Below, one piece after another: positions 24,172 to 31,512 of a stretch of DNA of 64,000 nucleotides (positions are counted from its first letter, which is position 1; each line of letters opens with the position of its first letter). Source of the DNA: an uncultured Clostridia bacterium (GTDB taxonomy: Bacteria; Bacillota; Clostridia; Oscillospirales; Ruminococcaceae); assembly GCA_947304245.1 (NCBI GenBank), contig CAMZAK010000002.1:4977-68976 (forward strand), given 5' to 3'. A program made the translations under genes and the position numbers. Under the pieces are notes generated by a model that was not told where the DNA came from, searched no databases, and saw only the letters and a list, made by a program, of their open reading frames with translations.

Positions 24172-24813
24172 ATGAAAAAAGTTTTTTTAAATGAAAATTA
24201 TGAAATTTTAATGTTTAAAGTTGGAGTTATGCCAACAAACTGCTATTTAATTTTAAATGTTAAAGAAAAAAAAGCTGTTGCTTTAGACCCTGGTTTTTAT
24301 GATGAAGAACTTTTAAATTTTGTAAAAGAAAATAAAATAACAATAGAATTTATTCTTCTAACACATGGCCATTTCGACCATATTCTAGGAGCAAATTCTT
24401 TAAACGCTAAAGCAACATACATTAACGAAGAAGACAAAGAAATGTTGCAAGATTCTTTTAAAAACGCAGGTTTTATGGCAGGGATTTTAAAATTAGAAGA
24501 AATAAAAAACCTTAAAACTTTTAAAGATTGCGATGAAATAAATTTTTTAAAAGAGCATTTTAAAGTAATTGCAACTCCGGGCCACACAAAAGGAAGCAGC
24601 TGTTTTGTTTTTTTAAATTAAATTATTTTCACAGGAGACACTTTATTTAAAGAAAGTGTTGGCAGGACTGATTTATATGGCGGAGACAGCAAAACACTAA
24701 AAAACTCCCTATTAAAACTAAAAAATTTAAAAAAAGACTACATAATTCTACCGGGCCACGGCAAAGAAACAACTTTAAATTATGAAAAAAATAATAATTT
24801 AAACTTAATGTGA
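24172..24813 (+). pseudogene. MBL-fold hydrolase (YcbL/GloB-like) interrupted by an in-frame TAA at 24619-24621
   Basis: The HxHxDH motif (LLTHGHFDHILG) and PGHTKGS lie upstream of the stop. The same frame continues [30 protein letters not shown]...[11 protein letters not shown], the conserved C-terminal half, up to TGA at 24811-24813. Confidence 0.75.
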
Positions 24814-25464
24814 AATTAATTAAAATAAGGTTGTAATTAATAATAAATTTTTTGCAATATTTTTTTTTGAAAAAAATTTAACTTGTTGGCTTAATCTACA
24901 ATTTAACATAGATAAAATAAATTTTAAAGTAAACTTTAAAATATTTAATTATTTTAAAAATTTTAACGTAAAATATTATTTTTTATATTTAAAATAACAC
25001 TAAATATATTTGTTTTACCTATATTTATTGATATCTATACTTTAATTTAATCCGTTTAATTCTAATTAAATTTCCTTAAATTATTTTTGAATTTGTGCAC
25101 TATATTTTAAATAAAAATAATTAACATCATAAAAATATTATACTTATTTTAATAAACACTTAGCTGCATTTCAAACGATATATTCTAAAAACAATCTTTT
25201 ATAGATGCATAACTAAATATTTTGTGTTTTAATTACAAAATATTACTTTAAATAATGCTTTAAAATTTTTATGTAGCTTAATTAAAATTATACTCCAATT
25301 TTATGTTAAATTAAACTATAACATCTTATATTATTTAAATAATATTGTTTAATATAAAATTTTTAAAATTTCTATTAACTCAATATTACTTAGTTTTTGC
25401 AATATTTTTTAAAGATAAAAATTTTCTGTAGTTTATTTTAAAAAACTAAAATTACTAAATTAAA

Positions 25465-27702
25465 TTAATTTTTAATGTAAACCTTAATACTAACCATTCC
25501 AAAACTTTTCTTTAAACTTCTAACAATGTTGCCTAATTGCCTTAAATGAACAAGGTAAACCGAAATAACTAAAGAAACTTGTTTTTCATTTAATAAATCT
25601 GCTTTAAAACTATTTATTGGAATTTTAAATTCTGCAAATTTGGAAGTAAAGTTTGCTATTATGTTTTTTTTCCTAACCAAAACCATTTCTAAAAATAACA
25701 AATATGGCTTTAATTTTTCGCCTTGCCATTGAACAGAAACAATTCTGTCTAACTTGTCTAAATTATCTTTAACAGGAAAAATGTTTTTGCAAAAAACGTT
25801 ATGAATGGAAATTCCGTGCCCTCTTGTAATAAAACCCACAATTTTTCCGTGTTTATTTAAATCACAACATTTAGGAAAATTAATAAGGCAATCTTCAACG
25901 CCTTCAACAACAACACCAAAAGGCTTATTTAAAACCTCTTTTTCTTCTAGTTTAACATTATTATTTTTATTTTGCTCTTCCTTTTGGCAACTAACATATA
26001 GTCTTTTAACACCAGGCATAATTTTTAAAATGCTAATTCCACCGTAACCCAAAGCAGCGTAAAAATCTTCAACTTCTTTAAAATTGTTTTTTTCAGCAAC
26101 CGTTTTAATAAATTTTTTAAATCTGCTTTTTGTTAACTGAATTCCACTTCTAACAAACTCTCTTTTAATTTCATCTTTCCCGCGTTCAATGTTTTCACTA
26201 CGTCTTTCTTTTTTAAACCAAGCCCTAATTTTGTTTCTTGCTTCACTTGTTTTAACAATGTTAAGCCAACGTCTTGAAGGACCATGATTATGCGCTTTTG
26301 TTGTTATTATTTCAATAACCTGATTGTTTTCAACAACATTTTCAATTTGTGTCATCTTGCCGTCAACCTTTGCACCAATCATCTTGTTCCCAATTTGTGA
26401 ATGAATTGAGTAAGCAAAATCTATTATGGTGCTGCCTGCTGGCAAAGTTTTAACTTCCCCGTTGGGTGTGAAAACGTAAACCTCTTCATCTCCAAGCCCT
26501 GTTTTAATAACCTGCAAAAATTCATCAGCAGACTCAGATTCTTTTTGTGTCTCAATTATTCTTCTAATCCATGAAAGCTTTTCTTCTAGGTTTTCTTTTC
26601 CTTTAACATTTTGCTTATATTTCCAGTGTGCCGCAATACCATATTCAGCAGTGTAGTGCATATCTTTTGTTCTAATTTGAATTTCAAAAGAAACCCCGCC
26701 AGGGCCAATAACCGTTGTGTGCAAACTCTGATACATATTAGGTTTTGGGGTTGAAATGTAGTCTTTAAACCTGTTGGGCAGTGGTGTGAAAATGTCATGC
26801 ATGGCTCCTAAAACAAAATAACATTCCGAAACGGTGTTCACAATAATTCTAATGGCATAAATATCGAAAACCTCATCCCAATCTTTTCCGTTAACGTAAA
26901 CTTTAAAATAAATCCCGCAATGGCTTTTCAGCCTACCACTAATTGAAACATCTTTAACAGAACCTTTAATTTTTTCAAATGCTATGTTTTCAACATATTT
27001 AATGTAAGATTCACCTTTTAAAAATGTGGAGTTTTCCTTCTCTTTTTTTTTAAGCATCTGCGTTATTTCTTCATAACCTATTGGGTCTAAATAAAAAATT
27101 GCAATGTCTTCTAATTCTTCTTTAATTAAACGCATGCCTAGCCTTTGTGCAATTGGTGCATAAATTTCCATTGTCTCTAAAGATTTATTACGCCTTTTTT
27201 GTTCTGGCCAACCCCTTGCAGTGCGCATATTATGAAGCCTGTCTGCTAGTTTTATTATAATAACTCTAATATCTTTAGACATGGCGAAAAGCATTTTTCT
27301 AATGTTTTCAACCTGTCTTTCTTTTTGTGTTGTTAATGAAACATTAGTAAGTTTAGTTACTCCGTCAACCAAAGTTGCAACATCTTCACCAAAATTAAAA
27401 GCAATTTTGCTTTTAGAGGTTTTAGTGTCTTCTAAAACATCATGCAAAATTCCCGCAACAACAGAATTAATGTCCATTCCAAAATCTATTAAAATTAAAG
27501 CAACACTAGTTGGATGAGTGATGTATTCCTCCCCTGAAAGCCTAAATTGCCCCTTGTGAGAAATTTCAGCAAACTCATATGCCTTAGTAATTAAATTAAC
27601 ATCATAGTCTCTATTAGAATTTTTAGCTGCTTTTAATAAATCTTTCAAACCAACATATTTAAATTTATCTTTCTCTTTTAAAAAATCTTTTAACTCTGCC
27701 AT
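25465..27702 (-). CDS. relA: Bifunctional (p)ppGpp synthetase/hydrolase Rel (RelA/SpoT family)
   Basis: HD domain (HPTSVALIL...GILHDVLEDT), synthetase domain (YQSLHTTVIGPGGVSFEIQIRTKDMHYTAEYGIAAHWKYK), and TGS and ACT-like C-terminal regions. Confidence 0.92.
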   Translation of the reverse strand: MAELKDFLKEKDKFKYVGLKDLLKAAKNSNRDYDVNLITKAYEFAEISHKGQFRLSGEEYITHPTSVALILIDFGMDINSVVAGILHDVLEDTKTSKSKIAFNFGEDVATLVDGVTKLTNVSLTTQKERQVENIRKMLFAMSKDIRVIIIKLADRLHNMRTARGWPEQKRRNKSLETMEIYAPIAQRLGMRLIKEELEDIAIFYLDPIGYEEITQMLKKKEKENSTFLKGESYIKYVENIAFEKIKGSVKDVSISGRLKSHCGIYFKVYVNGKDWDEVFDIYAIRIIVNTVSECYFVLGAMHDIFTPLPNRFKDYISTPKPNMYQSLHTTVIGPGGVSFEIQIRTKDMHYTAEYGIAAHWKYKQNVKGKENLEEKLSWIRRIIETQKESESADEFLQVIKTGLGDEEVYVFTPNGEVKTLPAGSTIIDFAYSIHSQIGNKMIGAKVDGKMTQIENVVENNQVIEIITTKAHNHGPSRRWLNIVKTSEARNKIRAWFKKERRSENIERGKDEIKREFVRSGIQLTKSRFKKFIKTVAEKNNFKEVEDFYAALGYGGISILKIMPGVKRLYVSCQKEEQNKNNNVKLEEKEVLNKPFGVVVEGVEDCLINFPKCCDLNKHGKIVGFITRGHGISIHNVFCKNIFPVKDNLDKLDRIVSVQWQGEKLKPYLLFLEMVLVRKKNIIANFTSKFAEFKIPINSFKADLLNEKQVSLVISVYLVHLRQLGNIVRSLKKSFGMVSIKVYIKN

Positions 27703-27737
27703 TTTTTTGGCTCCTTATTTTTAAAACAAAAAATATT

Positions 27738-30135: not shown

Positions 30136-30244
30136 GTTTTCAAATTAACTAAAATAAATCACTAAAATTTGTTTTTAATTTAAAATAAACATCAGTATAG
30201 TAAAATATTTTAAAAATAATTTAATAATTTCAAATTTTTTATAA

Positions 30245-30700
30245 CGGCGAAATAAACTTTTAAAGATTGAGTCTTACTTAATATGTTTAAATTAATAGTA
30301 ATTTAATAAGAAATTAATGAAATTAACAAAAAGATTGGATAAGATTTTCAAATATTTATGATGTTAAAATTATTGTAAACACCATTTAAAAATGCTATTT
30401 TATTTTATGGGCCATACACAACATTTTACTCCACTACCCAACAGATTTAAAAACTAGATTTCAACCCCAAAACCTAATACACACAACGGTTATTAACCCT
30501 AGAGAGGTCTCATTTGAAATTAAAATTAGAACAAAAGATATGCATTACACTGCTGAATACGGTATTGCGGCACACTGGAAATATAGGTGAAACATTAATT
30601 AAAAAAACCATAAGAAAAGCTTTCATGGATTAGAAGAATAATTGAAACACAAAAAGAATCCGAGTCTTATGATGAATTTTTTAAATCTATTAAGACGTGA
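30245..30700 (+). pseudogene. Decayed fragment of rel (synthetase-domain region), inverted relative to the intact gene
   Basis: It aligns by eye with the reverse complement of about 26520-27040. For example, ...tttcaaccccaaaacctaata...cacacaacggttatt...tttgaaattaaaattagaacaaaagatatgcattacactgctgaatacggtattgcggcacactggaaatata... matches the region encoding STPKPNMYQSLHTTVIGPGGVSFEIQIRTKDMHYTAEYGIAAHWKYK. It has deletions and stops. Confidence 0.75.
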
Positions 30701-31218
30701 TGCCAAAAATCATATTTATTATTAAAAAACATAAAATTTCTATTTTAATGTGCTTATTATATTTAAATAAAAGTTTTAAAATAACTAATATTAAACTTTA
30801 CATAACAACATAAATGCATTTAGTAATTTAAAAACCTTAACTGGTTGAACAAAAAAACATACTTTTAATACTAAATTAAAAGATAAACTTTATTTGTAAA
30901 ATTAAGCATTTAAACTGTTTTTTAATTAATTTTTTAGTTTTAATAACAAACTACTTAAAACATTTGAGTTAAATTTAAGTTTTTTAAAAATTTATTATTA
31001 ATTGATTTTTTGTTTTGTTTTAATAGACTTTAAAACTTTTCTTAAAAATTTAACTATTTTTTTAATTAATAAATTAAGTTTTCAAAATAATAACAGTTTT
31101 TTTATATATTTTTAATTTTAGTTAAAATTAACATGTTTTTTAATAATAATATTTTTAAAATTTTAATTTAATTTTTTACATTAACTTTAAATTATTAATT
31201 TTTTAGTAATTTAAAATT

Positions 31219-31512
31219 GTTTCTTTACCATGGGCTGAGTTTAAATTACTTTGAAATGTTCTTTTAAAAAATTTATTTCTTCTAATTTTAAAATTCCTGC
31301 CATCAAGCCTGCGTTTTTAAAAGAATCTTGCAGCATTTCTTTATCTTCAGGGTTAATGTATGTTGCTTTAGCATTTAAAGAATTTGCCCCTAGAATGTGG
31401 TCGAAATAGCCATGTTGTTAGAAGAATAAATTCTATTGTTATTTTGTTTTCTTTTATAAAATTTAAAAGTTTTTCATAATAAAAACCAGGGTCTAAAGCA
31501 ACAGCTTCACTC
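31219..31512 (-). pseudogene. Decayed fragment of the MBL-fold hydrolase gene, inverted relative to the copy at 24172-24813
   Basis: The reverse complement aligns with about 24250-24775 (gctgttgctttagaccctggttttta..., aataacaatagaatttattcttctaaca..., gattcttttaaaaacgcagg...). It has internal deletions and frame breaks. Confidence 0.75.

Follow-up and report, generated by a model that had tools for sequence, protein, structure and literature searches.

An inverted segmental duplication with a pseudogenized arm in the spacer between two tRNA genes of an uncultured Clostridia bacterium

Duplicative pseudogenes and the relics of segmental duplications occur in the junk-DNA spacers of eroding genomes such as those of Rickettsia and Mycobacterium leprae, and pseudogenes in eroding bacterial genomes are a subject with which Kuo & Ochman 2010 is reportedly connected. 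A tandem inversion duplication (TID) has three copies, the middle one inverted, with junctions at short quasi-palindromes, and is seen under selection for amplification; the TID of Salmonella is said to have been described by Kugelberg et al. 2010, Genetics 185:65. Clustered, strand-coordinated hypermutation occurs in yeast in the single-stranded DNA of double-strand-break repair (PMC6786661), and divergent, widely spaced inverted repeats in long single-stranded DNA are a source of rearrangement (PMC10164571). Here we describe a locus in a 64,000-nucleotide stretch (hereafter, the window) of an uncultured Clostridia bacterium (GenBank assembly GCA_947304245.1, contig CAMZAK010000002.1, positions 4,977 to 68,976), at which parts of two neighboring genes, one encoding an MBL-fold hydrolase and the other being the alarmone synthetase gene rel, recur in inverted and decayed form (MBL' and rel') on the far side of recJ, between tRNA-Leu(CAA) and tRNA-Arg(CCT). 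It is a known kind of thing, an inverted segmental duplication with a pseudogenized arm. Very probably, one contiguous MBL-rel segment was duplicated in inverted orientation into the tRNA spacer, specifically in this lineage, and then decayed.

The copy shares with the pseudogenes of eroding genomes its release from selection, its AT-biased substitutions, frameshifts, and deletions, and its merging into spacer. Unlike those of Rickettsia and M. leprae, which are mostly inactivated single-copy genes, it is a two-gene inverted copy lying a few kilobases from its source. It resembles a TID in being an inverted copy of adjacent sequence and in what would be, at this locus, strand switching and the removal of a palindromic center by deletions; unlike a TID, it is present together with its source as two copies only in this genome.

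The source genome (G000) is a metagenome-assembled genome (MAG) of 40 contigs (1.06 Mb, ∼26-27% GC, 98% complete, 0.5% contamination). Repeat search, blastn, and pairwise alignments together show that positions 30249-31524 (the right arm) mirror 24250-26976 (the left arm) collinearly and in inverted orientation. The left arm is drawn from two source genes, that of the MBL-fold hydrolase (Lactamase_B; 24172-24813, + strand; Pfam PF00753, E 3e-24) and an intact bifunctional rel (25465-27702, - strand), whose 745-aa product has HD, RelA_SpoT, TGS, and AH/RIS domains (Pfam, with support from syntenic orthologs). Of the mirrored blocks, the 5' part of MBL comes first, followed by the MBL 3' end with 23 nt beyond it, the rel stop with 16 nt beyond it, and rel aa 243-401. 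On the left, the MBL homology runs from codon ∼27 to 23 nt beyond the stop (24250-24836, +; alignments and blastn), a small rel block takes in the final 17 codons with the stop and the following 16 nt (25449-25516, -; repeat search and blastn), and a larger block within rel covers aa ∼243-401, in the synthetase domain (26501-26976, -; repeat search and alignments). Their counterparts on the right are the pseudogene fragment MBL', with the same limits of codon ∼27 and 23 nt beyond the stop (31155-31524, -; blastn and alignments), a remnant of the rel 3' end with its stop (30762-30829, +; an inverted repeat pair, also found by blastn), and the pseudogene fragment rel' (rel aa ∼243-401; 30249-30697, +; blastn, tblastn, and alignments).

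These inverted repeats are real and far beyond chance. In the repeat search of the window, 24363-24506 matches 31272-31415 at 92% and 24272-24363 matches 31416-31507 at 96%, whereas the two pairs in rel and rel' (26596-26721 vs. 30480-30605 and 26501-26594 vs. 30603-30696) are each 86% identical. When 30136-31534 was compared by blastn with the whole 1.06-Mb genome, the left arm was the only match of the right arm, giving two copies in total: rel' aligned at 81.8% over 373 columns (E 1.9e-99), and MBL' (31507-31272) aligned with 24272-24506 at 92.8% over 236 columns (E 1.2e-95). By the same method, the MBL 3' end plus 23 nt (24756-24836 vs. 31233-31155) is 82.7% identical, and the rel stop region plus 16 nt (30762-30829 vs. 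25449-25516) is 76% identical over 68 nt (51.8 bits), a score that is weak genome-wide (null best scores are ∼51-53 bits), but the position of the block is collinear. At the protein level, tblastn placed rel aa 273-401 at 30330-30697 (+) and MBL aa 34-135 at 31508-31238 (-). The core of rel' (30329-30681) is 86.6% identical to the source rel.

The blastn and tblastn matches uphold the homology that the initial annotation had proposed from the letters alone, namely, that a degraded rel fragment (+) and a degraded MBL fragment (-) mirror the genes on the left. The same relative order in mirror image had been claimed correctly, but not the same spacing, because 2.73 kb of source corresponds to 1.28 kb in the right arm, which was shrunk by deletions. 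The MBL fragment, first placed at 31219-31512, extends over about 31155-31524, and the remnant of the rel 3' end at 30762-30829 had been overlooked. The 1.4-kb stretch described as free of open reading frames (ORFs) is so (30136-31534, 1399 bp) except for a sole ORF of at least 40 aa, a 52-aa frame antisense to MBL'. The arms do flank recJ and tRNA-Leu, as noted at the time, but tRNA-Arg(CCT) (31535-31610, -), which abuts MBL', had been missed.

The AT-rich centers of the two arms are another matter. The left spacer (24837-25448, ∼14% GC) has no alignable partner and the right spacer (30830-31154, 12% GC) has no detectable homology to it. Their local alignment score is 16, against a shuffle mean of 16.8 +/- 2.1. 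Searched against the rest of the genome, these spacers gave best matches below the shuffled-query null, and compared with the spacers of the relatives G001 and G002 they showed no similarity over shuffled controls; TRF found trivial AT repeats only.

Coding capacity has been lost on the right. In the source frame, rel' has 10 stops and six indels (including a 14-bp deletion), and ∼1 kb of rel (25517-26500) is absent between rel' and the rel-stop remnant. MBL' carries a 1-bp insertion in the HxHxDH region, the change H67Y, one stop, and deletions of 36 bp and 179 bp. Substitutions in rel' run from GC to AT in 40 cases vs. 11 from AT to GC. Omega, which bears on whether MBL' kept a function for some time after the copying, is 0.20 for MBL' and 0.43 for rel', and is 0.28 for a fragment of dnaJ elsewhere in the genome (dnaJ', see below) that was certainly dead on arrival. 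The right arm is a non-functional pseudogene relic, without sign of present function. It should be noted that rel' spans nearly exactly the RelA_SpoT domain (Rel aa 256-365, Pfam), as in small alarmone synthetases of the RelP/RelQ type; unlike these, it has no open frame. Such a synthetase gene was considered and rejected given the 10 stops and six indels, and the + strand of 30136-31250 has no ORF of at least 40 aa, hence no stand-alone RelA_SpoT frame.

The closest public relatives are rumen/gut MAGs of 0.8-1.6 Mb that are labeled Ruminococcaceae or Oscillospiraceae. Each of the 30 relatives searched has a single rel match, and a second, stop-riddled match is found only in G000. Three of them, G001, G009, and G002, are referred to below by their loci L001, L002, and L004, respectively. 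Both L001 (Rel 74% identical) and L004 (54%) have, in order, the symporter, tRNA-Arg, an AT-rich spacer of 600-700 bp, tRNA-Leu, recJ, rel, MBL (convergent), and the ABC genes, with AT-rich spacer only, and no rel or MBL fragments, between tRNA-Arg and tRNA-Leu. The synteny check in these two finds the order kept without the fragments, and no independent paralogs at the site. Furthermore, tRNA-Leu, recJ, and rel have the same orientation relative to the symporter and ABC genes in the window, L001, and L004. The recJ segment is therefore in its ancestral orientation, and the second option offered by the initial annotation, an inversion with duplicated ends centered on recJ, is not supported.

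Polarized against seven outgroup proteins, the right arm is derived at 35 of the 36 resolvable non-synonymous differences in rel and at eight of nine in MBL (a caveat to the statement that the left arm keeps the ancestral sequence is that the left MBL also has one TAA, described below). There are 22 informative sites at which the rel of G000 differs from the state common to G001 and G009; rel' has the resident state at 19 of these and the outgroup state at three. Because it shares so many G000-specific states, the copy was made late on this species' own branch. Synonymous divergence (dS) between the arms is 0.26 for rel and 0.22 for MBL, equal within error, vs. ∼0.8-1.05 for orthologs of G000 and G001. 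The equal dS and the mirrored collinearity together argue for one event and one copied segment. With the four mirrored blocks, the changes derived on the right, and the absence of the fragments from the 30 relatives, an ancestral inverted segmental duplication, one arm of which decayed, stands as first proposed.

Within rel', a cluster of G>A changes (30249-30520, + strand) emerges from binned substitution counts: 23 of 48 source G are affected vs. C>T at two of 41 C (Fisher p = 3.7e-6). Over the whole of rel', the counts for the + strand are 26 of 78 vs. four of 62 (p = 1.3e-4); elsewhere in the right arm, the two kinds of change are balanced (G>A 6/65, C>T 6/63). The cluster is uniform across codon positions, and there is no neighbor-base preference at its sites, i.e., no deaminase sequence context. 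It adjoins the truncated junction of rel' and has a sharp edge at ∼30520. The greater overall divergence of rel' (15%, vs. 8% for MBL') is due to this cluster. Its direction agrees with C>T on the gene-carrying strand, and the inverted rel' shows the pattern on the opposite sense strand, as that rule predicts. Transcriptional read-through from tRNA-Leu was rejected as the cause, as the + strand would then show C>T, contrary to observation. A fitting source would be deamination of the single-stranded DNA left by resection at the break that truncated rel' (cf. PMC6786661). Like the yeast clusters, that of rel' is one-stranded, lies by the truncated junction, and fades with distance, which fits 5'-3' resection; unlike those and the other inverted-repeat cases (PMC10164571), which are experimental and eukaryotic, it is a fossil pattern. 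Other decayed gene copies in the genome ("ghosts", see below), among them older ones such as sbcC', have a 2-3.5-fold excess of C>T on one strand, and this genome-wide asymmetry could explain part of the cluster. Extreme one-strand C>T ghosts are found on contigs C14 (19713-19893, 13/24 vs. 4/44), C17 (4191-4364, 9/25 vs. 0/34), and C12 (30671-30791, 6/11 vs. 0/16).

Several observations tell against the copying of one contiguous segment within this lineage, and they must be weighed together with the rival explanations. The unequal total divergence of the two fragments (rel' 15% vs. MBL' 8%; Fisher p = 0.005) needs the local G>A cluster as its explanation. The central spacers of the arms cannot be aligned, so that only the flanking blocks allow us to infer that the copied segment was strictly contiguous. 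The arm junctions are AT-rich and too decayed to reveal a clear quasi-palindrome or microhomology. Finally, the contiguity and the age of the copy are taken from one MAG assembly: exact-protein look-ups with RecJ and with the symporter returned no conspecific assembly, a metagenome scan with RecJ returned none, and in 5.8 billion protein clusters the closest RecJ has 54% identity. That rel' and MBL' were inserted independently and came to lie side by side by chance could be argued from the unalignable spacers and the differing total divergence. We regard this as highly improbable, as the fragments mirror the source in order and orientation, down to the rel stop region facing the MBL stop with its 23 nt, as the two dS values agree within error, and as the extra divergence of rel' is confined to the G>A cluster. 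An assembly artifact, in which the contig would be a chimera of different populations, comes to mind because the genome is a 40-contig MAG, yet this is more improbable still: both flanks of the 1.4-kb stretch keep the synteny of the relatives, the fragments are unique decayed sequences rather than strain variants of intact genes, they share no exact run longer than 34 bp with the left arm, and contamination is 0.5%.

A different origin of the right arm, as imported DNA of a conspecific or sister strain that entered in inverted orientation by illegitimate insertion, would allow part of the arm dS of 0.22-0.26 to predate the transfer and would suit the three of 22 informative rel' sites with the outgroup state. 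Import is nevertheless quite unlikely, given that rel' bears 19 of the 22 G000-specific states, that no integrase, att repeat, or foreign gene lies alongside, and that dozens of local self-copies in the same genome make an internal origin simpler. The least probable of these alternatives is that the arms still function as inverted repeats and flip the segment with recJ and tRNA-Leu. The geometry fits, in that inverted repeats flank a segment of 3.3-6.8 kb, and RecA is present. However, the arms are decaying (82-93% identical, in blocks of at most 236 bp, with the right arm riddled with deletions), their longest exact runs are 34, 30, and 29 bp, and MutS is present; there is no recombinase among the neighboring genes, a crossover in rel/rel' or MBL/MBL' would truncate the only copies, and the segment is in the ancestral orientation. 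Flip-flop inversion at present is unlikely. The Pfam scan behind the statement on recombinases covered seven neighboring ORFs at 21.9-35 kb (a fused solute-binding/permease ABC protein, an ABC ATPase, MBL, Rel, RecJ, the alanine symporter, and one without a Pfam match) and found no site-specific recombinase. Two further classes are not supported. An invertible switch with selected repeats is contradicted by arms that are 82-93% identical, deleted, and have exact runs of at most 34 bp, and a tRNA-targeted island or prophage remnant by the lack of an integrase ORF and att repeat and by a content that is a copy of resident rel and MBL with G000-specific states. The 3'-terminal 18-25 nt of the two tRNAs do not recur at 23-34 kb, even with up to five mismatches allowed.

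On the duplication of one contiguous MBL-rel segment, the sequence of events was probably as follows. A stretch of the convergent MBL-rel pair, at least 2.7 kb long and reaching from MBL codon ∼27 across both stops to rel codon ∼243, was copied in inverted orientation, and the copy came to lie at a distance of 3.3 kb, in the non-coding DNA that separates the convergent tRNA-Leu(CAA) and tRNA-Arg(CCT) genes. We infer that the copy originated by a strand switch in replication or break repair, in which the opposite strand of nearby DNA was copied. This could have occurred by a fold-back (palindromic) copy, whose center (tRNA-Leu', recJ', and the N terminus of rel') would have been deleted later, or by a direct long-range template switch into mid-rel. 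By either route, a promoter-free gap between convergent genes would have let the copy persist, as no promoter is disrupted there. Subsequent decay involved frameshifts, point mutations biased toward AT, and the loss of at least four stretches (of 36 bp, 179 bp, 14 bp, and ∼1 kb). For the three genes tested, repair deficiency was rejected as a cause of the duplication and AT drift, because the genes for UDG, MutS, and RecA each have an open frame in the genome, as does a second MutS-family gene.

The spacing of rel and MBL varies among the relatives. The gap is 651 bp in the window (24814-25464, ∼14% GC) and 957 bp in G001 (11.8% GC; L001 12191-13147), whereas the genes overlap by 8 bp in G009 (L002 2502-2509) and are 7 bp apart in G002 (L004 12200-12206); the AT-rich spacers have no mutual homology. 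Given that the arm spacers are unalignable and that L002 and L004 have the two genes abutting, the AT-rich centers of both arms probably grew independently after the duplication. Among other members of the genus, five loci (L003, L005, L019, L020, and L021) have recJ, rel, and MBL co-oriented, with no tRNAs nearby, from which it follows that MBL or an adjoining block was inverted in the clade of the window. In L001 (4564-5226, 5482-5558, and 6393-6503, which also take in the recJ piece noted below), the tRNA-Arg is inverted relative to the window and L004, and an array of ∼130-bp tandem repeats (about five units by eye) lies between the symporter and tRNA-Arg.

As regards the remaining features of the locus, recJ (27738-29753, -; 671 aa with DHH, DHHA1, and RecJ_OB domains; Pfam and synteny) is single copy and lies between the arms. 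The insertion spacer has as its inner boundary tRNA-Leu(CAA) (30050-30135, +; ARAGORN; Rfam 61.8 bits), which has a promoter-like site at 30001-30028 (11 of 12 positions match), and as its outer boundary tRNA-Arg(CCT) (ARAGORN; Rfam 62.7 bits), whose 3' end is ∼10 nt from the truncated 5' end of MBL'. No RNA family besides these two tRNAs was found in an Rfam scan of 24-32 kb. A sodium:alanine symporter gene (-; Pfam) follows beyond tRNA-Arg(CCT), and the genes for the fused solute-binding/permease protein and the ABC ATPase (+; Pfam) lie to the left of MBL. Farther along, at 33155-43118, there are five tandem paralogs of a 620-650 aa membrane protein without a Pfam match (DNA identity 77-85%).

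The resident MBL gene, which had been called intact, has an in-frame TAA at 24619-24621 (translation FVFLN*IIFTGD), at a codon that specifies K, E, or Q in the relatives. This could be a recent nonsense mutation or a sequencing error. A tblastn search of the genome found no MBL paralog, so the resident gene is the sole member of its family. For annotation, rel' and MBL' should be marked as pseudogene fragments, and the nonsense codon of the resident MBL should be flagged.

Local duplication followed by decay is a habit of the whole genome, and this locus is its largest inverted case. Self-comparison of the genome gave 257 direct and 19 inverted same-contig repeat hits, and in 61 BLAST pairs a piece of an ORF of at least 120 aa has a 71-99% identical copy in non-coding DNA. 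Without pairs of at least 97% identity, 55 remain; most are direct and within 3 kb, and pth' and sbcC' are among them. A few of the pairs are at contig ends and may be assembly overlaps. A second inverted ghost is an internal fragment of dnaJ, 92.5% identical and 2 kb from dnaJ (contig C11 13789-14222 vs. 16162-16513; L022 2290-2723 vs. 4663-5014), which sits in the gap between the convergent genes for nnr (YjeF) and an M23 peptidase. The relative L001 has similar ghosts, such as a recJ' piece, 76% identical, upstream of recJ. A more inclusive scheme, which we offer tentatively and consider rather doubtful, would have the locus as a fossil fold-back duplication whose center was lost by a later break, with a deaminated single-stranded DNA intermediate leaving a kataegis-like G>A cluster; the same copy-and-decay process, unusually active here and with strand-coordinated C>T in several other ghosts, would build the long spacers of 12-15% GC in this reduced rumen genome.

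On its own, the duplicate is without consequence for the cell, and its value is as a dated, polarized marker of the evolution of the genome. The inverted orientation of the copy makes it possible to tell strand effects from those of gene orientation, and what it reveals is C>T pressure on the strand bearing most of the genes here. A 1-Mb, host-associated, Oscillospiraceae-type genome of 26-27% GC keeps copying pieces of housekeeping genes and is slow to delete them. Such behavior runs counter to the usual picture of deletion-biased genome reduction, and the locus serves as a marker of how unusually tolerant this genome is of local duplicates.

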